Assembly (NCBI GenBank): GCA_963740015.1
Contig: CAVUCM010000021.1
Location: forward strand, 1 to 40,000
Direction of reading: 5' to 3'
Source of the DNA: an uncultured Acidobacteriota bacterium
Lineage (GTDB): Bacteria; Acidobacteriota; Terriglobia; Acidiferrales; UBA7541
DNA length: 40,000 nucleotides
Shown: piece by piece, positions 49 through 30,863 of the stretch
How positions within the stretch are numbered: the first letter of the stretch is position 1
Layout: every line of letters begins with the position of its first letter
Notes under the pieces: generated by a model
Seen by the model: only the letters and a program-made list of their open reading frames with translations
The model's database searches: none
What the model was told of the DNA's origin: nothing
Translations under genes and position numbers: made by a program

Positions 49-2752
49 TTAATTTCCATGCTCAAGCGCGTCAGCACATTTTGATTCTGGATGAAATTCA
101 TACTCAGTGACAACATCTCCGTATGTTTTAACTCGCGCGATATCTCTTGATCCGTAATGACCGCGCGTCGTGATGCGAAACCTTTTCCGGGTGTATTGAT
201 CAACCCACTCCTTTTCGAGCCATTTCCGAGGATCAGGATCGTAGGGGGAAATGAGATGGCATTTTTCGGGATCAACACCCTCCGGATGGCCGAAAGGGCT
301 GATTTGGCTAGTCTGAAGGAAATTGAATGGCTTGATTTGTTCGGCGTACGGTTTTCCGGCATTGAGAGATTCGAGGCACTTCATTAGCGACGGACTGCTG
401 ACCGTGGTTCGACCGATTGCTGGGAGATTTGCAAATACTGGCTGCTTGGCAGATAGACCCACGGCTTTGCGAATGATTGCGTTCCACACAGCGCAAGTCC
501 AATTTCGATCAGAGGCCTCCGGATCGGTCGGGTTTAGCAAGTGTCCAAGACCATGGCGCGACCATCTATCTTTCTTGTTGTTGGTTTCTTCGCGAAGTAA
601 TACGGGTTTTTCGTTCTCTGACATTAGAAAAAGTGCGTAACGCTTTGCAGAAATCGCCAGGCAATAAAGTTGTCGCCGCTTTCCTGTCTTTGGATCGCGG
701 TTGTCATCCTCGATTTTCAGAACGGAGCCAGAGATAACACTCCGGTCGTACGGGTTTAGAGCTTCAAACCTCGCAACTATCTGGTCGACTTGCTTCCATG
801 TGAGAGCTTGTATCCTCTCCTCTACCGTTTTGCGAACGATGCTCCCCACCCTTGCAAGGAATGAATCCGCCGCGCTCCGTCGCGACAATTGCCATGGAAT
901 CCGTGTCTTCCATCGCATAGGTTCCACTAAGCCCTGTAACAGAATGTTCGAGCAAGGCGAGCATCAATCGCGCGGCCCCTGTGATTAGCGACGCTAACGG
1001 CGGAAAGCAATACTGGCCCGCTTGCTCGGGGTGAAGAACAGAACATTCGTATGGTTCCGGATCGAGCCCATGGCACTGGACTTTGATTCTTTTCTCTGAT
1101 TCTTGCCGGTTCATTTCCGCGAAGATTCCGTAACTCGTGGCATTTGCTAAAACTTTCAGAGACTTATCCAAACGGTCCACATCTTTTTCAGATAGCTCTT
1201 TTCTTCTGTTTAAGGATTTCCGCTGTTCGATGAGCGTCCGGAACAAGTCCTGATTTTTGGGATTAACTTCAACTTCGCCACCGAAACGGACCGTCTTGAG
1301 ACCCGCCAGCTTTCCGACTGGAACGAGCTTGAAAGCATCGACGATCAACGGAATCTTCCTTTTAATAAGAACCGACGCCGCTACGTCGGGAAGTGAAAAC
1401 CACAAGCCTTCCGAGGGCGCGTTGTCCGATGGGTAGAGATAATTGAGAGCTACTTGCCAATCGTTACTCGCAGCGCTGTACTTGGCTCGCGACGGTAAGA
1501 GGTCGCCGTTCGGTATTAGCTTTACGAACGCGGGAAGTCGCATCCAAGTTTTTGGAGAAAATAGTTTTTCAGAGGTCCAAGGTACTGAGAAACCTCTTGA
1601 TCTCTGCTTGGCAGTGTTCGACCACCCTCACTTCACGCGCAATGAGAAATCGTCGCAAATCCATCAGGCCATTAACGGTCGGATACATCGAGAGAAAATC
1701 CACATAAGTAACCGGGACAGGGACTTTTCGAATGTGAGCGCTCGTTCTTCCGCCAAAAAACGCCGTCTGCGCAAACCCTAAGTAAGCTGCGGGGAAATCA
1801 GGTTGCCGTTCCAGAATTGGATTGATTCCCATCGCCCGCAAATAGGCTTTGCCAATTGATGCGGGCGAGAACGCCTTTGTGGGCTGTAGGTTAATCGGAT
1901 GTTTTGCGTACTCAGCGAGAAGTTTGATCGCCAGTTCCGACGTGGCTAGAACGTCTCGACGGTTATAGTCGATATATTTCTTCGTGACGATACCGTGGCG
2001 AGTAACATGTTGCTTTCCATGCTCAACGCCGAAGGCACGGCAGGCGCTGTCCAATGAATAAGCTCGATCAGTAAGTGCAAAGGCCAGCGTTCGTAAGTCG
2101 AGCATGTGCCCGCGAAATTTGTATCCCTTCTCAGGCTGCCCTGTCGCAGAATTTTCAGGGATCAGATCGGAATCGTCGGGCCCGAAACGAGCAGTGAAAC
2201 CCTTTAAGGCCCGCTTGGAGTCGATGTGCTTGATACCAATGCTGGGGCGACGGGTTGAGGGTCTTTCCACTCCGGATTTTATATACGACCAAATGGCCAG
2301 CGAGAATCCGCCCGCAAACCGTCCTCGCGCTGGACGTGAGGTGAAGGCAATTCGAGATAAGTCGAACGGGCAGATTGAAGCCCACCAAGAGAGCGCGGCT
2401 TTTGTAGACCGCCTTGTACAACTTCTTGAGAAATTCGCGACGAGTTAACAGAAGGAGCCGGGTTCCTCGGCTGTTCGTGGGCGGCTACATACTTTTCCAG
2501 CGTCTTGCGGTCCTTGGATGGCAAGTCGTCGGCATAGAAGAGGCCCTCTTCGCGCAACTCATTGTCGACGAAGAATCGATAACTTCCGAACGTTAAACGC
2601 TGGCTTGCGTCCGTTCGCGTCTCAGTATCGAACACGAACATGGCGCGAGGCAGACGCCATATTTTGTTCTTGTGACTTTTGGGCTCGGTGGATTTGAGCG
2701 CCGGAAAAACTCGAATCGCCACGGGCAGCAGAGACGGGTTTGTTTTCACCAT
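49..2752 (-). pseudogene. Family B DNA polymerase (3'-5' exo + pol domains), ~900 aa when re-joined; frame broken by four +1 frameshifts
   Basis: Minus-strand fragments 2279..2752, 2155..2421, 1569..2270, 764..1543 and 49..927 carry the motifs in canonical order. ExoI is FVFDTETRTD (~2629-2600). ExoII is GFNLP|FDLSRIA (~2380-2345, split at ~2367). ExoIII is YIDYNRRDVLAT (~1976-1941), followed by FFGGRT. Motif A is VDFLSMYPT (~1700-1677), motif B is KVLANATSYG (~1156-1127), motif C is YAMEDTDS (~919-896), and KxY is AISAKRYAL (~654-628). Each junction requires skipping one nucleotide. Confidence 0.75.
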
Positions 2753-2994
2753 CCTTGCCTAGCGCTTGGGTTTGCGTTTCGTGCATAAACTCCTCCATCT
2801 TCGTTCCCATCCACCAATCGGGCCCAAGACGTCTCCCGCAATGTTTCGTCGAGTGCTTCAAGCAACCTTACGACCCGAAGTAAAAGCCGATCAACAAGAT
2901 AGGCATTCGTTTCGCAGTAACCTCGGATGCAAGCAGCACCTGCGAGCAACGGGCTTCGTTCCCGATTCTCCCAAGTCTCTGTTGGGCCATTCAT
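2746..2994 (-). CDS. Hypothetical 82-aa protein, overlaps the polymerase start
   Basis: The ATG at 2994 follows an in-frame TGA at 3007-3009. Its stop overlaps the polymerase start as ATGGTGA (2752..2746). No recognisable motif, and it is not Cas2-like. Confidence 0.35.
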   Translation of the reverse strand: MNGPTETWENRERSPLLAGAACIRGYCETNAYLVDRLLLRVVRLLEALDETLRETSWARLVDGNEDGGVYARNANPSARQGW

Positions 2995-3266
2995 ATTGCT
3001 TGTCGGTCAGGACACCGCATGATCGTTCGCTGGAATTGGCGTCGTTGTCGGGTCGTTTGCCTCGCCTGCAGGATGGTGATCATCCAACGAAATTTCCAAA
3101 TTTCTTCGCGCTGGCAATTCGCGCAAATTGTCGGATTGCTTCCCCGGAATCAATGCTAGGGGGCGATCCTCACCGCACTGATGCACCGGTTACCTTGGCC
3201 GACTCTGTCTGGCTGCCCTGGCCTCTCGTTCAAACGCTGCAATCGGATCACGCGGTAGTTTCCTCT

Positions 3267-3899
3267 TCATCGCGTGCCACCCGCGTACATCGACTCGAAC
3301 CTCAACACTCCAGCCGAACCCAGTCTTTCCAACTCTTTCAAGTCTGTCAGCAAGCGATAGCGCTTGCCGCGTGCATCGACAATCCGCTTTTTTGCAAACT
3401 TCAAAAGTGCGGAATCGTCTCCCGTTTGAAGAAACTTCTGGACCGCTGCCCAATGGCCGCCAACGAGGCTGGCCTGTCGAGAATCGCGTGTTGCAATCTC
3501 TTTTCTGCCCTCAGTAGTTAATGCATTCACAATGCGTAATAGTTGGTCCTCTTTTTTGGCGACGTATCGCCCGTTTTTTCGTTTTCTTAGTGCGGAGCGG
3601 CCAAGAGAGATAGCAGTCTTGGAGGAAAGACCAAATTCTTTAGCCGCCTTGGGAAGAGTCATCCCCTCTCTTATTTTTGAAATGACATGTCCAATCGAGT
3701 CCCAAGCATCCTGATTCTTGCGAGAGAGCGAGAAATACTGTCTCGCCGTGGTTGGTTTTTTGAAAGGCAGCGCATTTCCTCTTTTCTTTCGCACGACGCG
3801 TTTGCGTCCCTTCCCTCTCGGTTGCGGTTGGTGTCGACGGGTCTTCCTTTGAACTTCTCTTCTCGATTTGCGCTTCATGGCTGATTTTCCCCTGTTCAC
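3267..3899 (-). CDS. Basic HTH DNA-binding protein (210 aa), first gene of the polymerase-side operon
   Basis: The N-terminal ~45 aa are extremely Arg/Lys-rich (RKSRREVQRKTRRHQPQPRGKGRKRVVRKKRG). An HTH-like segment follows: MTLPKAAKEFGLSSKTAISLGRSAL. It is divergent from the cas1-side operon. Confidence 0.6.
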   Translation of the reverse strand: MNRGKSAMKRKSRREVQRKTRRHQPQPRGKGRKRVVRKKRGNALPFKKPTTARQYFSLSRKNQDAWDSIGHVISKIREGMTLPKAAKEFGLSSKTAISLGRSALRKRKNGRYVAKKEDQLLRIVNALTTEGRKEIATRDSRQASLVGGHWAAVQKFLQTGDDSALLKFAKKRIVDARGKRYRLLTDLKELERLGSAGVLRFESMYAGGTR

Positions 3900-5194: not shown

Positions 5195-6685
5195 ATGGCA
5201 GCTATTCAGACCGTACCTCAACATCTTCAGCACTGCAATTTTGTTCCAATCTCACCTCGGCATGGCGTCGTAACTCTCTTCGGCTACGGAACAAGTATTT
5301 GCGTTGACCGTGGTCACTTAACGATTGAAGACGGGATCGGCAAGCAGAGGCGCTATGCTCGCTTTCCTCGCGTTGGGCATGGACTGAAACGGCTTGTCGT
5401 AATCGGGTCGGATGGGCTCGTTTCCTTGGCTGCGCTTAGATGGTTGGCCGATCAAGGTGCCGCGTTTGTCATGCTCGACAGGCTCGGAGAGGTTCTGGCC
5501 ACCACTGGCCCTGTGCATCCTTCTGACGCTCGTTTGCGGCGTGCACAATCGCTCGCTGAAAGTTCGGGAGTGGCTTTGCGCATTGCGATAGAACTAATCA
5601 AGCGAAAGCTGCTAGCGCAAGAGCGGCTCGTTCGAGATCAATTTCAAGACGATGCATCGGCAGAAGTAATCTCCGGTCAGCGGCACGCCTTGATGAAGGC
5701 AACCTCCAGGGAAGAAATCCGACGTTGTGAAGCATACGGGGCTCTCGCATACTGGCGCGTCTGGCACACACTGGTTTTGCAGTATCCACGATCTGACTCA
5801 CAGCGTATTCCTGAACACTGGCGCGTTTTTGGAAGCCGCATTTCACCTCTCACCAAATCGCCACGACTCGCGGTCAATCCCGCAAATGCAATGCTCAACT
5901 ATTTGTACGCGATTCTGGAATCGGAGGCGAGACTGGCAATCTCTGAACTCGGCCTCGATCCCGGCCTTGGAGTTCTTCATAGCGACACGCGCACGCGAGA
6001 CAGTTTGGCTTGCGATCTAATGGAACCGATTCGTCCGCAAGTGGACGCGTTCCTGTTGAATTGGTTGCGCAGTGGATCATTACAACGAAAATGGTTTTTC
6101 GAGGAGAGAGATGGGAATTGTCGGCTGACCGGCGAGTTCGCCGCCCAACTCTCGGAAACCTCCAAGCTTTGGAAGCAAGCTTTGGGACCTTTCGCTGAGT
6201 GGATGTTGCGTGCTTTTTGGTCCGGTAGCTCAAGTACCTCAAAGATAGAGGCTCCTGCCACACGTTTGACGCAAGATCGAAAGCGGGAAGCAAAAGGGAT
6301 TCCCACACAACCCTTATCAGAGTCCGGAGTCGCACCTCGGACTCCGTTTACGAAGACCCTGTCCAACGACTCTCCAATAATTCCAAAACTGGCACGGTTG
6401 GATAGATTTGACCCGGTCGCACAGTCACGCCGTGCAGAGAGCCAAAGGCGGCAAGTTGCTGCGCAGAATGCGTGGAATCCGAACGAAAAACCGGACTGGC
6501 TAGACAAAAAGACTTATAGAGAGCGAGTGCAACCACAACTACTAAGAATTGCTGCTCCAAAGATTATGTCCACACTTTCGATTTCAGAGCCATATGCACT
6601 AAGAATTCGCGGAGGCCGTTGTATTCCGCATCCGAGGCACTGGCAAAATCTTGCGATGCTAGTTGGAGTCTTGTCAGCTCAGTGA
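5195..6685 (+). CDS. cas1: Cas1-family integrase (Cas1-solo / casposase-like), 496 aa with a long C-terminal extension
   Basis: The N-terminal beta-domain pattern is VTLFGYGTSICVDRGHLTIEDG...LKRLVVIGSDGLVSLAALRWLADQGAAFVMLDRLG. The catalytic helix domain reads CEAYGALAYW (E179, ~5729) and NPANAMLNYLYAILESEARLAISELGLDPGLGVLHSD (H262, ~5978). It continues DSLACDLMEPIRPQVD (D274/E277, ~6014-6025). RBS GGGAGG is 10 nt upstream of the ATG. Confidence 0.88.
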   Translation: MAAIQTVPQHLQHCNFVPISPRHGVVTLFGYGTSICVDRGHLTIEDGIGKQRRYARFPRVGHGLKRLVVIGSDGLVSLAALRWLADQGAAFVMLDRLGEVLATTGPVHPSDARLRRAQSLAESSGVALRIAIELIKRKLLAQERLVRDQFQDDASAEVISGQRHALMKATSREEIRRCEAYGALAYWRVWHTLVLQYPRSDSQRIPEHWRVFGSRISPLTKSPRLAVNPANAMLNYLYAILESEARLAISELGLDPGLGVLHSDTRTRDSLACDLMEPIRPQVDAFLLNWLRSGSLQRKWFFEERDGNCRLTGEFAAQLSETSKLWKQALGPFAEWMLRAFWSGSSSTSKIEAPATRLTQDRKREAKGIPTQPLSESGVAPRTPFTKTLSNDSPIIPKLARLDRFDPVAQSRRAESQRRQVAAQNAWNPNEKPDWLDKKTYRERVQPQLLRIAAPKIMSTLSISEPYALRIRGGRCIPHPRHWQNLAMLVGVLSAQ

Positions 6686-11749: not shown

Positions 11750-12373
11750 ATGATTGGCCAGCTTCGCGGACGCCTCGACGAAAAACGCCCGAATCAAGTG
11801 CTCGTCGATGTCGGCGGCGTGGGCTATCTTGTTCAAGTCCCGCTTTCCTCCTACGCAGCGCTCGGCGAGCTCCACACCGAAGTCACTCTTCTCATTCACA
11901 CACATGTTCGCGAGGATGCACTCGCCCTATACGGCTTTGTGTCTTCTCGCGAAAAGCATCTTTTTGAGTTGCTCCTCTCTGCTTCCGGCGTCGGGCCTTC
12001 TCTGGCCTTGAAAATTCTCTCTGGTATGAGCGTTGAGGAACTCGTCCCTGCCATTCGTGGCAACGATTTAGGGCGCCTAACGAAAATTCCAGGCGTTGGC
12101 CGCAAAACCGCCGAGCGCATGGTCGTTGAGCTAAAGGACAAGCTTGAGGCCGTCGTGTTGGAGACCCAGAAACCAGCAGTCGCCTCCCCTGCAGGCGCGG
12201 AAGCCGACGTTATCTCCGCGCTAATCAATCTTGGCTACGATGCGCGCGCCGCCGAAGCCGCGGCAGGCGAGGCCAAGCGCGAAGCTGGCACAACGAATTT
12301 CGAGAAATTGTTGCGTGCTGCCTTGCAATCGCTAGCCGCGCCCAAAGGTCGCACAACTCATGCCGGCGCCTAA
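11750..12373 (+). CDS. ruvA: Holliday junction branch-migration complex subunit RuvA
   Basis: MIGQLRGRLDEKRPNQVLVDVGGVGYLVQVP..., then the HhH region LTKIPGVGRKTAERMVVELKDK. The C-terminal domain III reads DVISALINLGYDARAAEAA. Confidence 0.95.
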   Translation: MIGQLRGRLDEKRPNQVLVDVGGVGYLVQVPLSSYAALGELHTEVTLLIHTHVREDALALYGFVSSREKHLFELLLSASGVGPSLALKILSGMSVEELVPAIRGNDLGRLTKIPGVGRKTAERMVVELKDKLEAVVLETQKPAVASPAGAEADVISALINLGYDARAAEAAAGEAKREAGTTNFEKLLRAALQSLAAPKGRTTHAGA

Positions 12374-12387
12374 TCTTGTAGTTGTAG

Positions 12388-12407
12388 GGCCGACCTTTAG
12401 GTCGGCC
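12388..12407. repeat. Perfect GC-rich hairpin between ruvA and ruvB (REP-like or attenuator)
   Basis: GGCCGACC-TTTA-GGTCGGCC, an 8-bp perfect stem with a 4-nt loop. No T-tract follows. Confidence 0.5.
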
Positions 12408-12437
12408 AGCGGTCTAAAATAAAGCGAAGCCTCAACA

Positions 12438-13493
12438 ATGCCCGACACTAGCGCAAAACGATCCATGGATCGAAACGAACAACACAGAATCGTCTCCGGC
12501 GCTTCCTATGATGAAGACGCCCGCATCGAAGCCAGTGTCCGCCCCAAGCGCCTCGACGAATACATTGGCCAAAAACGCGTAAAAGAAAACATCTCTATCG
12601 CCATCGAAGCTGCCCGCAGCCGCGGCGAGGCCCTCGATCACGTCCTCCTTTACGGTCCGCCTGGCCTCGGAAAAACCACTCTGGCGCAAATTATCGCAAA
12701 CGAACTTCAAGTCCCCATCAAGACGAGTGCGGGGCCGCTGCTCGAGCGCAAAGGCGACCTGACCGCAATCCTCACCTCGCTCGAAGGTAAGGAAGTTTTC
12801 TTTCTCGATGAAATTCACCGCCTGCAACCCGCCGTCGAAGAAATCCTCTATCCCGCGATGGAGGATTTTCGCGTCGACTTGATCATCGGCCAGGGCCCCG
12901 GCGCCCGCATTCATCCATTTCAACTGGGACATTTCACACTCATCGGCGCCACCACACGCGCTGGACTGATCACAGCACCTCTGCGATCGCGCTTCGGCAT
13001 CGTCCACCGCCTCGATTTCTACGAGCCCGAGGATTTGCTGATCATTATTCACCGCTCCGCCAAAATCCTGAATATCCTGATGGACGACGGTGGCGCCGAA
13101 GAAATCGCCCGTCGCTGCCGAGGCACGCCGCGTATCGCCAACCGCCTGCTTCGCCGTTCTCGTGATTTTGCCGAAGTACGCGCAGCAGGCCGCATCACCC
13201 GCGCCGTGGCGCAAGAAGCCTTGGCCATGCTTGGCGTCGACGAAAGCGGCCTCGACGAAGTCGACCGCAACCTAATGCTGGCTCTTTTGGATAAATACGG
13301 AGGTGGCCCGGTAGGCCTCGGAACGCTCGCCGCAGCTCTTTCCGAAGAAGAGGACGCCATCGAAGAAATCTACGAGCCCTATCTTATGCAGATTGGTTTG
13401 ATTGACCGCACGCAACGCGGCCGCGTGGCCACTGCCCGCGCCTACGAATATTTCGGCAAAGAACTACCCAAGCGCCAGCCTCGCCTCTTCTGA
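12438..13493 (+). CDS. ruvB: Holliday junction DNA helicase RuvB
   Basis: Walker [15 protein letters not shown], Walker [30 protein letters not shown] and [13 protein letters not shown]. Confidence 0.97.
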
Positions 13494-13572
13494 GCCTGTC
13501 GGGAGGATTTCAATACCTCTATATCTGCCGCACCAGAATCCAACCGTCACTGTTTGCTAGAATGAATCGACT

Positions 13573-14073
13573 ATGAGCGTAATCGACGAAGTTCTTCAAG
13601 CTAACGAACTTTACTCTCGCACGCACGAACTGCGAAAACTCACGCCGCGCCCCGAGCGCCATCTAGCCATCCTGACCTGCATGGATACGCGGCTTTCGAT
13701 TCGCACTCTCGGTCTGAAAACCGGCGACGCCCACATCATTCGAAACGCCGGCGGCATCGTCACGGAAGATACCCTGCGCTCCTTGGTCGTCTCCCACTAC
13801 CTTCTGGACACCAAGGAATTCATGGTCATCAACCACACAGATTGTGGCCTGATGCTTACCTCCGAACAGGATTTGCGCAACAGGATCCAGAATCGTGCGG
13901 GAACCGCAGCGATCTCTCCCGCGTTCTTTTACGCCTTCCAGAACATCGACGAGAATGTTCGTCATCAATTGCAAAAGCTGCGCACGCATCCTTGGGTTCC
14001 CAAAGAGGTCACAGTGCGAGGTTTTGTATATGACGTGGCCACTGGCAAACTTCGCGAGATCGCAGCCAGTTAG
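13573..14073 (+). CDS. Beta-class carbonic anhydrase
   Basis: The zinc-ligand motifs are CMDTRL and NHTDCG. Length is 166 aa. Confidence 0.85.
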   Translation: MSVIDEVLQANELYSRTHELRKLTPRPERHLAILTCMDTRLSIRTLGLKTGDAHIIRNAGGIVTEDTLRSLVVSHYLLDTKEFMVINHTDCGLMLTSEQDLRNRIQNRAGTAAISPAFFYAFQNIDENVRHQLQKLRTHPWVPKEVTVRGFVYDVATGKLREIAAS

Positions 14074-14099
14074 CCGCGAAGCGCCTAGCGCCTATCAAA

Positions 14100-14585
14100 A
14101 TGCCCACGATCTATCTCTCGCTTGGTTCAAATATAGGCGACCGCCAATCCAACATCCGTGCGGCAATCGCCGCGCTTCCTTCCGCCGGCGTCCACGTCAA
14201 TCAGGTTTCGTCGCTATACGAAACCGAGCCCGTCGACTTTCTCGACCAACCGTGGTTTCTCAATTGTGTAGTGGAAACAGAAACGAGTCTGGAGCCCCAC
14301 GCACTGTTGCAGGCGTTACGCGCCATCGAAACGCAACTCGGTAGCAAAAAAGACTTCGCAAAAGGTCCACGCAAAATCGACCTGGACATTCTTCTGTACG
14401 ACGCCGAAACGATTGCCACCCCAGAGTTGCAAGTGCCCCATCCTCGAATGCTCCAGCGCCGCTTCGTCCTCACCCCGTTAGCCGAAATCGCTCCCGATCT
14501 CATGCACCCGTCCTGGCCAGCCACCGCCGCAGCTCTGCTCGGTCACGTCGCGGATAGCAGTCGAGTCATCCGCCTCAATCCGTAG
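14100..14585 (+). CDS. folK: 2-amino-4-hydroxy-6-hydroxymethyldihydropteridine diphosphokinase (HPPK)
   Basis: LSLGSNIGDR, YETEPVDFLDQPWFLN, GPRKIDLDILLYD, PHPRMLQRRFVLTPLAEI. Confidence 0.9.
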   Translation: MPTIYLSLGSNIGDRQSNIRAAIAALPSAGVHVNQVSSLYETEPVDFLDQPWFLNCVVETETSLEPHALLQALRAIETQLGSKKDFAKGPRKIDLDILLYDAETIATPELQVPHPRMLQRRFVLTPLAEIAPDLMHPSWPATAAALLGHVADSSRVIRLNP

Positions 14586-27801: not shown

Positions 27802-30147
27802 CTACGGCGCCGGTGGCAGGTGAGCTTCGAAGTAGCCGAGAATGTTTGTATAAACGTCCATGCTCGTACCCTGGCCCTCAAAGATGCCATGGGTGCGGCC
27901 AGGGTAGACGCGCATATCGAATTGTTTGCCGAGCGAGATCAATCTGTTGACCAGCAGCTCGAAACCCTGGAAATGCACATTGTCGTCGCCGGAGCCGTGC
28001 ATCACCAATAAGTCGCCGTGCAGGCCACCCGCAAAATTAATGGCCGAGCTCTGTTCGTAGGCCTTCGGACTATCCTGCGGCAATCCCATATAGCGCTCCT
28101 GATAGATACTGTCGTAAAGCCGCTGGTCGGGCACAGGCGCGACAGAAACTCCAACGCTGTAAACTTCTGGATAGCGAAACATCAGATTGAGCGTCTCCGT
28201 ACCGCCGCCACTCCAACCCCACACTCCGACGCGCTTCGCATCGATATACGTATGAGTTTTCTCAAGCGATTGAAGAGCGGCCGCTTGCTGCTGAGACGAA
28301 AGCGGCCCAACATTTCCGTAGACGACCTTGCGCCACTCGCGCCCACGCGGAGCGGGTGTCCCCTGATTGTCAAAGCTCGCCACAAGATACCCGGCGCTAG
28401 TAAGTGCGCGGTCGAACATGGACGGCCAGCGATCCGCAGTGGTTTGTCCGGCGGGTTCGGAATAGACATTCACAATGAGCGCATATTTCTTCGCAGGATC
28501 GAAATTAGGCGGCTTCATCAACCACGCGTCGACCGTCAGTCCGTTACCCGCGTCCACTCTCACAAATTCCGCTGGCCCGCTCGATAGCGGTTTTACACGC
28601 TCGGCAAGCACGGAATTGTCTGCGGTGTTTCGCATAACGCGATGATCGGGCAAGTGCACCACTTCAGACATAAGCGGTTCATTAAAGGATGAGAAGTTGT
28701 GGAAGGCCCATTCGCCATTCGGCGAAATAGTGTACGAGTGCGTCCCGGGCGTATTCGGTGGTGTGACGCGCTCAGGCGTAGCCGAGCCGTCCAGCCGCGA
28801 GCGATACAGATACCGCTGCGTGGGATTGTCCGGCGATGCGTTAAAATAAACCCACTTTTCATCCGGGCTGACACGGTCGACGTTTACCACGTCGAACTCG
28901 CCGCGCGTAACAAGCTCGGCTTTGCCGGATTCGCGCGCCACACGATACAAATGTCGCCAGCCATCGCGTTCGCTCAGCACCAGGAATTCGCGGCCCTTGT
29001 TGACCCACAAAACCGACGCATTCACATCCACCCAGGCGCGGTCTTCGTCAACGAACACGGTTCGCGCTACGCCCGAACTCGCATCCGCGAGCAGAAACTC
29101 ATTCTTATTCTGCAATCGGTTCATGTGTTGCAGGAGCACATGGCCGGAGTCAGCCCAGCCTATCTGCGGAATATAGAAATTGTTCGCATCTCCAGCGGTC
29201 TGCATCCAAACAACTTCCCCTCCAGCCGCGCTCGCGACACCCACGCGGACCGTCGAGTTGTGCGTACCCGCAAGTGGATACGGATATTGCAGCGTCTGCG
29301 GATACGGACCTGTGCCGGGATAAGGAATTCCAGTGACGATCTCGCCGCGCGGCGCGCCAAGATCGTAGATCAACGTATAGTTCCCCACGCCAGTCGTATT
29401 AAATTGCCAGAAAGCAATGGCGCGGCTATCGGGACTCCATTCGAACCCATCGCGGATATCAAACTCTTCTTCGTTCACCCAGTCGGAAGTGCCGTTAATG
29501 ACGGTGTCTGATCCGTCGTGCGTCAATTGTGTGATTTTTCCACTGGCCAACTCTTCGACGTAAACATTGTTGCCGCGAACGTAGCCAACTTTGCTGTTAT
29601 CGGGTGAAAACTTGGCAAACATCAAGCTCGATGCAGGAGCATCGCCGCCAAGTTTGCGCAGCGAACCGCTCTTCAAATTAAGAGCCCAATAATCGCCCCG
29701 CGTGTTCTGCCGCCAAACGGTATGCGAATTCGTGAACACCAGAACCTGCTGTCCGTCGGAGGACATTGTGTAATCCTCGAGAGGCAGCGGCGCTTTCTCG
29801 CCAGCCGGAATCAGACGGTTTGCCGCAACTAGAATCTCTCGAGCTCCAGTCGACGTTTGATAACGCACAATGTCGCTGCCGCCACCCGAGGCCGCAGCTT
29901 CTATCGCCAGATAGAAATCCCCGTTCCCCAGCCATTCTCCTCCATGAAAAGTCTTCACGTGGAATTCCGGATTAAACATGGTACGGGCGACGAGTTTAGC
30001 GGCGGACTCCCGCTCATCCCCGCGAGCTCGAACCGGCGCCGCAAATGCTGCCGCAATGCCAAGTGCCGCCAACGCAGCTGCCGAGAAAAACGCACTCGTC
30101 CTAATTGCTCGTCTCGATGTACCTCTTCCCAGCTTTCCGTTTGACAT
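27802..30147 (-). CDS. Dipeptidyl-peptidase IV family serine peptidase (S9B), exported; paralog of 19427..21787
   Basis: DPPIV N-terminal propeller. Catalytic GVWGWSGGG, with later GSGDDNVH and THG. I prefer ATG 30147 (signal SAFFSAAALAALGIAAAFAAP, GGAGG 6 nt upstream) over the track start at 30225. Confidence 0.85.
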   Translation of the reverse strand: MSNGKLGRGTSRRAIRTSAFFSAAALAALGIAAAFAAPVRARGDERESAAKLVARTMFNPEFHVKTFHGGEWLGNGDFYLAIEAAASGGGSDIVRYQTSTGAREILVAANRLIPAGEKAPLPLEDYTMSSDGQQVLVFTNSHTVWRQNTRGDYWALNLKSGSLRKLGGDAPASSLMFAKFSPDNSKVGYVRGNNVYVEELASGKITQLTHDGSDTVINGTSDWVNEEEFDIRDGFEWSPDSRAIAFWQFNTTGVGNYTLIYDLGAPRGEIVTGIPYPGTGPYPQTLQYPYPLAGTHNSTVRVGVASAAGGEVVWMQTAGDANNFYIPQIGWADSGHVLLQHMNRLQNKNEFLLADASSGVARTVFVDEDRAWVDVNASVLWVNKGREFLVLSERDGWRHLYRVARESGKAELVTRGEFDVVNVDRVSPDEKWVYFNASPDNPTQRYLYRSRLDGSATPERVTPPNTPGTHSYTISPNGEWAFHNFSSFNEPLMSEVVHLPDHRVMRNTADNSVLAERVKPLSSGPAEFVRVDAGNGLTVDAWLMKPPNFDPAKKYALIVNVYSEPAGQTTADRWPSMFDRALTSAGYLVASFDNQGTPAPRGREWRKVVYGNVGPLSSQQQAAALQSLEKTHTYIDAKRVGVWGWSGGGTETLNLMFRYPEVYSVGVSVAPVPDQRLYDSIYQERYMGLPQDSPKAYEQSSAINFAGGLHGDLLVMHGSGDDNVHFQGFELLVNRLISLGKQFDMRVYPGRTHGIFEGQGTSMDVYTNILGYFEAHLPPAP

Positions 30148-30224
30148 TTGCAACCTCCGTGAACCAATTGCGGAAGAAAACACTATCAGATTCCAGCGCC
30201 GTCGCGTCTCCGAGCGGAGCCGCA

Positions 30225-30863
30225 TTACGGCACGATGATTCGGGATTCTTCGCGCTTGAGTTCCGGCGCAGCAGGGAACTGCCCGCGAAGGAATTCAATG
30301 TAGCGCCGGGCGCGCGGACGGCCGTTGGTTCGCAGCAGTCCCATCCGATAGAGGAAAACGAGCAGAGTAAAAACTTCGGAGTCCTTTGCCGGCGGCGCAT
30401 CGGCGCGTTCTGCGTTGTGCTGCTTGGATTCATTCAGAAATGCCGAGAGTGCAGCGTAAAGCTCGCGCGGCAGCGTGGCATCCGGAGGCTTCTCGTAAAG
30501 AATTCCCGAGCCCAGCGTTTTGTAGGTTTCGGCGAGAGCGCGCAGCGCGTCAAGAACATCCGGATCGGTCGTAGCGGGATGCGCGGCGGAAAATTTAGCC
30601 GCAGTAAACGCCAGCCCGGAAAGAACATTTTGGTGAGTGTAGATCACGTCTTGCGGGACTTTAACGTCGAGGAGTGGTGTGTTCTCCGGCAGCGAACGCT
30701 GATGCTGATCCTCGTACCGATGCGCCGCGACTAGGTAGGCGCAGTCCGGCGGGCAGTCGATGGAAACTTCCCGCTCCTTACCGCAGCAAACGGCGCAGAT
30801 TTTCTCGCCCTTCGCTGGACAGAATCTTTCCGCTTTGCGTTTTTCACAGATTGGACAGGACAC
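30225..30863 (-). CDS. Cys-rich (zinc-finger-like) hypothetical protein, 212 aa
   Basis: The N-terminus MSCPICEKRKAERFCPAKGEKICAVCCGKEREVSIDCPPDCAYL has 10 Cys in 42 aa. The remainder is helical. Confidence 0.55.
   Translation of the reverse strand: MSCPICEKRKAERFCPAKGEKICAVCCGKEREVSIDCPPDCAYLVAAHRYEDQHQRSLPENTPLLDVKVPQDVIYTHQNVLSGLAFTAAKFSAAHPATTDPDVLDALRALAETYKTLGSGILYEKPPDATLPRELYAALSAFLNESKQHNAERADAPPAKDSEVFTLLVFLYRMGLLRTNGRPRARRYIEFLRGQFPAAPELKREESRIIVP

Follow-up and report, generated by a model that had tools for sequence, protein, structure and literature searches.

Casposons are self-synthesizing transposons that are driven by Cas1 and carry their own family-B DNA polymerase (PolB) (Krupovic et al. 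2014, PMC4046053). In casposon family 1, the polymerase is protein-primed and a conserved small gene is located just upstream of it, and family 3 is bacterial (PMC4046053). Indels that fragment genes are, for their part, established in nanopore assemblies and in low-coverage bins (Sereika et al. 2022, PMC9262707; Kastor, PMC12007338). The window analyzed here, that is, the whole stretch of 40,000 nucleotides, is the opening 40 kb of contig C21 of a metagenome-type assembly of 6.07 Mb in 63 contigs. The following features are found at its left end:

Positions 1 to 61, no strand: contig-terminal stretch, unrelated to the polymerase continuation (no significant similarity).
Positions 52 to 2752, minus strand: predicted family-B DNA polymerase gene of a putative Cas1-PolB (casposon-like) element (motifs, relatives).
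Positions 2775 to 3270, minus strand: small Cys-rich gene with CxxC...CxxC, HHPAGEAND and NDH motifs (conserved position in relatives).
Positions 3267 to 3899, minus strand: open reading frame of 210 aa, same operon, intact, at the inner edge of the error patch (single-frame match to relatives).
Positions 5195 to 6685, plus strand: cas1, casposase-like, 496 aa, intact, divergent from the polymerase operon (PF01867, E = 1.4e-41).

As in casposons, a solo Cas1, here with a C-terminal extension, adjoins a PolB operon, and a conserved small gene lies directly upstream of polB. Judging from the linkage of Cas1 (PF01867) to PolB and from conserved synteny, the window element is classified as casposon-like, because the polymerase family is linked to solo Cas1 across phyla, namely in loci of Acidobacteriota, Actinomycetes and Gemmatimonadota. 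The synteny of Cas1 and the polymerase operon is kept in L001-L005, L010, L018 and L024. The contig stops inside the element and does not reach its left end. The window also carries an island of defense-type cargo at 7.8-11.5 kb. In L024, which holds the closest intact element, an OLD-like TOPRIM/AAA_15 gene and TIR-domain and YaaC genes flank the Cas1-PolB core (998-3214 and 12213-14489); these flanking genes are defense-type cargo as well, like the window's own island.

The motifs ExoI-III (DxE, NxxFD, YxxxD), A (DxxSxYP), B (KxxxNxxYG), C (DTDS) and KxY are all found on the joined reading path of the polymerase, in columns that do not vary among 40 diverse relatives, and by these motifs the protein is assigned to family B. 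At 50% identity, this large family counts 1610 representatives. Finer classification gave mixed signals. The match to PF03175, the only pointer to the protein-primed subgroup, is weak (E = 2e-4; 20.8 bits, under the cut-off of 25.8), and sequence searches of the PDB with the single protein and with a profile returned no match. An AF2 model was poor (pLDDT 53, shallow alignment); its top 50 Foldseek matches were all PolBs (50/50; best E 4e-7, TM ~0.15-0.2), of the Pol II and Pol alpha types, on this unreliable model. The locus thus differs from described casposons in that its host is bacterial and its polymerase combines a sub-threshold PF03175 match with Pol II/Pol alpha fold matches on a poor model.

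Six-frame translation of the minus strand follows the polymerase through frame 0 (2758 to ~2478), frame 1 (~2476 to ~2369), frame 2 (~2365 to 1579), again frame 0 (1576 to ~824) and finally frame 1 (~822 to 52), that is, through four +1 shifts, without a single stop on the joined path. DNA alignments against A1, L024 and L030-L033 revealed exactly four 1-nt insertions in the window polymerase:

Position 2477, minus strand: extra base 1, C in CCCA[C]GAAC; frame +1 after codon ~91 (L024 and L030-L033 are without it, flanks conserved).
Positions 2366 to 2368, minus strand: extra base 2, one C of CCC (CC in relatives), inside the ExoII motif, NLP/FD (relative alignments).
Positions 1577 to 1578, minus strand: extra base 3, one G of GG (CTTGAC in relatives); junction STL/TSEKLF (relative alignments).
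Position 823, minus strand: extra base 4, A in GGT[A]GAG, placement 822-823; junction QNG/EER (relative alignments).

Five intact relatives (L024 and L030-L033), at 87-94.5% nucleotide identity, are all without the four bases; relative to L030 (94.5% identity over 2648 nt), these bases are the sole gaps. A joined product, made by skipping the four bases in script only, is 899 aa long and 94.7% identical to the intact protein P0151 (1009 aa), with identical amino acids over every junction. It retains 38 of the 38 residues that are invariant among the 40 diverse relatives, covering ExoI-III, motifs A, B and C, and KxY. Neither nonsense codons nor frame-breaking indels longer than 1 nt were seen on the joined polymerase path, and dN/dS relative to the nearest relative, L024, is 0.157.

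An earlier, sequence-only reading of this locus had claimed that the polymerase is readable solely via four +1 frameshifts and that the re-joined path contains neither a stop nor a damaged motif. Six-frame translation and the alignments with relatives confirm the former, and the complete set of invariant residues confirms the latter. The homologue alignment proposed at the time places each indel as a single extra base. The first junction of that reading (~2485 to ~2455) is now pinned to the C at 2477 and its fourth (~826 to 811, following QNG) to the A at 823. At the second (2370 to 2361), the shift within ExoII stands, but the base to be skipped is more simply one C of CCC at 2366-2368 than the G originally chosen. 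Likewise, the third shift is real, but it lies at 1577/1578, between STL and TSEKLF, rather than at ~1570; the D-L-stop reported there is out-of-frame read-on.

The relatives comprised 21 loci from species genomes, P0151 on contig L024 (from a protein search), and 80 loci from metagenome contigs. The polymerase is a single frame in 13 of the 21 genome loci and in 67 of the 80 metagenome loci. In most relatives, this open frame spans ~1000-1050 codons; intact relatives encode a continuous protein of 970-1050 aa in which all window fragments are covered in order, and each of the four sites is crossed in one frame by 66-75 of the 80 metagenome loci. At 94-95% identity, the closest relatives do not belong to the same strain. 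A search for an independent assembly of this population was negative: no record has the exact Cas1 product, and an exact-pattern scan across junction 2 in the metagenome contigs was empty. Nucleotide alignments with relatives at ~65% identity were too noisy for indel placement, L009 alone being usable. In this copy from a long-read metagenome-assembled genome (MAG), the frame breaks are elsewhere, at codons 195 and 552.

Broken copies also occur among the short-read metagenome loci, 13 of 80 (16%) having a frame break or rearrangement, with 1-2 breaks each and often larger deletions or insertions in addition. Inherited single-base shifts are found in short-read relatives at codons ~720 and ~764. 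In four short-read contigs from different samples (L071:5080-5160, and L072, L074 and L075 at the same coordinates), the polymerase frame breaks at one codon, ~764, the context of which (...GGTCTCCCTTGAAGGAA) has been kept although SNPs surround it. In this clade, the upstream frame ends in TGA, and the homologous C-terminal ~250 aa run on in the -1 frame; the break is an inherited frameshift, a split gene or possibly a true recoding site. In L041 (4960-5030), L042 and L046, a single extra base is present at codon ~720, GAGAAT[G]AATAATAAAAAAGAC, and this clade has a second break near L041:5590-5700 (codons ~930-947). Matching truncated proteins of 721 aa and 770 aa recur across several sources (P0175, P0177, P0243, P0247).

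Frame breaks in the window are not limited to the polymerase. Directly upstream of it, relatives have a conserved small gene of 169-190 aa. The window copy runs through frames f1-f2-f1-f2-f1-f3-f1-f2, requiring at least seven one-base shifts, both + and -, between ~3207 and ~2830, with a scrambled stretch near 2876-2846. Its in-frame blocks are identical to L024 at 107 of 128 amino acids, with a dN/dS of 0.066. In total, the patch holds at least 11 one-base indels between 3207 and 823 (2.4 kb). Their density is uneven, with at least seven in 0.5 kb followed by four in 2.7 kb and no steady rise toward the contig end; in a first count, insertions outnumber deletions 9:3. Because the shifts in the small gene go both ways, the uniform +1 direction does not characterize the locus. 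The option of indel errors confined to the polymerase, raised before, does not hold, as the adjacent small gene has at least seven more, in both directions. Similarly, the neighbors had been described as intact, which is true of the long genes and not of the small upstream gene, with its at least seven frame changes.

The small gene (window 2775-3270, minus strand; L024:6459-6968) contains two CxxC pairs and HHPAGEAND/NDH, has no Pfam match, and occupies the slot of terminal proteins or HNH-like partners of casposon polymerases. The region is a mosaic: the polymerase (62-2740) shares 94-95% DNA identity with L024, L030 and L031 (dS 0.16), the small gene (2740-3300) ~70-80% (dS ~1.6), and the switch point is the polymerase start. 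This distribution of identity suggests that recombination took place where the two genes meet. The small gene and the polymerase abut in the window and in L024. In L001-L004, ~450 nt lie between the small gene and the polymerase start (L001:4358-4813, L002:4276-4830), and the ending ...TEMERFAPKRK... occurs twice, which may reflect a partial duplication.

As a whole, the assembly resembles one made from long reads. Repeats of ~1.5 kb (taken as IS copies) and the 16S gene are contig-internal, and many contig ends reappear in other contigs, over 2-28 kb and with 96-99.9% identity. Haplotig-like twins, such as C1:2024-30535 and C2:1-28526, C55/C56, C31/C32 and C33/C58, differ mainly by 1-nt indels and SNPs; such twins inflate genome size and contamination. 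Over 12 twins (112 kb), 244 gaps were counted, 217 of them 1 nt, 22 of them 2 nt and five of them 3 nt long, a pattern that is unlike strain variation in coding DNA. For each indel, it was then determined which copy keeps the open frame. All 33 frame-breaking indels fall in C31 (12.7 kb) while its twin C32 is intact, C27 (144 kb) has 33 in its first 8.9 kb, and C58 has 18 relative to C63. A patch at C14:249-259 kb is one-sided, with 12 insertions and no deletions.

Searching the genome with its own long open reading frames (tblastn) yielded ~190 junctions where the frame switches (+1 in 82, -1 in 108), and these are clustered; C35, for example, has 11 in 6 kb, and C36 is intact. Assembly-wide, deletions outnumber insertions 130:80. 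Within 5 kb of a contig end lie 63 of the 190 breaks, a strong overall enrichment with a count biased by overlaps, and breaks detected via distant paralogs show no contig-end enrichment (9/68). Two adjacent AcrB-type transporter genes are in at least seven pieces at C23:87-93 kb (L025 = C23:86000-94500), in the interior of a 513-kb contig; this split pair is an interior error patch (or decaying island). On the other hand, no such breaks affect rpoC, the two dnaE genes, ~30 TonB-receptor frames or 14 of the 17 AcrB genes, and open frames of at least 200 codons account for 84% of the genome. Errors in this assembly are patchy, at 1-4 per kb within patches, matching the start of C21. Contig C27 contains 194 consecutive G (30050-30243, outside the window), an obvious sequencing or assembly artifact.

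At the contig end, homology of the polymerase to every relative stops at base ~62 while the contig stops at base 1, leaving the gene incomplete by ~110 C-terminal codons, and these codons were not found on any other contig of the assembly. A shuffle test revealed no significant similarity between bases 1-61 and the homologous polymerase continuation, and the idea that the last ~60 nt are a garbled continuation was dropped. According to a homopolymer census, the T12 at 4-15 exceeds every other A/T run of the 6-Mb assembly. After it comes a weak match to what we take to be the core of the nanopore ligation adapter, a hint only. Under strict scoring, this match is not significant; under lenient scoring, the full-adapter score was reached by 13 of 5000 background windows and the core score by 52 of 5000.

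Taken together, the broken polymerase is most likely not a feature of real biology, and we assign a probability of roughly 0.8 to the four extra bases being consensus errors of the assembly that are absent from the organism's DNA. Bases 1 to ~3.2 kb would then be one of many error-rich patches in a long-read-like assembly. The location of the patch, at a contig end that runs out into unrelated bases, also speaks for this reading. The reads behind this stretch may have been few or heterogeneous, as could be the case for a mobile element present in part of the population, and the consensus caller would have left single-base insertions and deletions that shatter both the small gene and the polymerase. 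We infer that the patch in the window shares its cause with the other error patches, and likewise that it originates from low or mixed coverage. The true gene, if so, would be an ordinary intact polymerase of ~1009 aa. Previously, three explanations had been left unranked except for recoding; assembly indels emerge as the best supported, shorn of the notion that they are restricted to the polymerase.

In bacterial pseudogenes, substitutions are far more common than indels, and deletions are of varied length. In the window, indels far exceed other damage, as there is no nonsense codon, no longer indel, no loss among the 38 invariant residues and no elevation of the low dN/dS. This excess is the reverse of natural mutation spectra and favors error. 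Neither gene carries the mixed damage of a pseudogene: dN/dS is 0.157 and 0.066, respectively, and the frame-breaking indels are all of 1 nt. Against an artifact weigh the uneven indel density, the lack of contig-end enrichment among breaks detected via distant paralogs, the insertion bias of the patch (9:3) as opposed to the deletion bias of the assembly (130:80), and the natural breaks in 13 of 80 relatives.

The main alternative is a true and very recent decay, in which single-base indels in a burst, together with a 3' truncation, inactivated the replication module (small gene and polymerase), with cas1 and cargo left intact. The breaks are, after all, present in the deposited sequence, the last ~110 codons are absent and found nowhere else in the genome, Cas1 and the 210-aa open reading frame are intact, and the 16% of related short-read contigs with a frame break or rearrangement indicate that copies of the element do decay. 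Decay nevertheless appears unlikely, because the frame-breaking indels, at least 11 of them, are all of 1 nt and are accompanied by no nonsense codon, lost invariant residue or raised dN/dS. Moreover, in relatives broken by nature, 1-2 breaks are seen, often together with larger indels, rather than four plus seven; the same indel signature recurs wherever the assembly covers a stretch twice, one twin always being intact; and the gene appears truncated exactly where the contig ends in unrelated sequence. Should the breaks be real, which we likewise consider improbable, the locus could represent a minority copy of a bacterial casposon that is losing its small gene and PolB by an indel burst while keeping Cas1 and defense cargo, a snapshot of domestication.

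Programmed +1 recoding, with the ribosome or a special tRNA skipping one base at each of four sites, would account for the common direction of the four polymerase shifts and the perfect conservation of the joined product, and a rare AGA codon at site 4 and a stop soon after the shift at site 3 fit such a scheme. Like programmed +1 frameshifting of the prfB, antizyme and Euplotes types, the locus needs a +1 shift to yield a conserved product. In contrast to these systems, however, a single gene has four sites, none of them is conserved, they have no slippery or stop context in common, and -1 shifts are needed next door. None of the relatives is shifted at any of the sites, which 66-75 of the 80 metagenome loci and the 13 intact genome loci cross in one frame. 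The contexts CAC/GAA, CCC/GTT, TTG/GAC and GGT/AGA have no motif in common, and P-site re-pairing in +1 is possible at one only. In addition, the neighboring small gene needs -1 as well as +1 shifts, and other long-read MAG copies break at other codons, as L009 does at 195 and 552. Recoding is therefore very improbable, in agreement with its earlier placing as the least likely of the three explanations, its shift sites being unconserved and without common context. Even more remote is the idea that the five fragments are separate, independently conserved genes. Open reading frame calls alone would suggest it, but relatives encode one continuous protein and the catalytic motifs are spread over the fragments, and the homologue alignments rule this idea out.

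These results call for caution. The polymerase and the small upstream gene should not be annotated as pseudogenes or cited as evidence of lost replication, nor should the all +1 pattern be taken as recoding. More generally, genes in contig ends, in short duplicated contigs and in certain interior patches of this assembly require a check at the read level before decay is claimed. If the breaks were true after all, a casposon that is losing its polymerase while keeping Cas1 would be of moderate interest for element domestication.

The locus thus resembles the long-read consensus errors described previously (PMC9262707, PMC12007338), in that single-base indels split conserved genes while relatives and same-assembly twins are intact, and in that the errors occur in patches and are most severe in contigs that are short or duplicated and at some contig ends. 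It differs from the classic homopolymer error of nanopore assemblies in that most of the indels occur in runs of 1-3.
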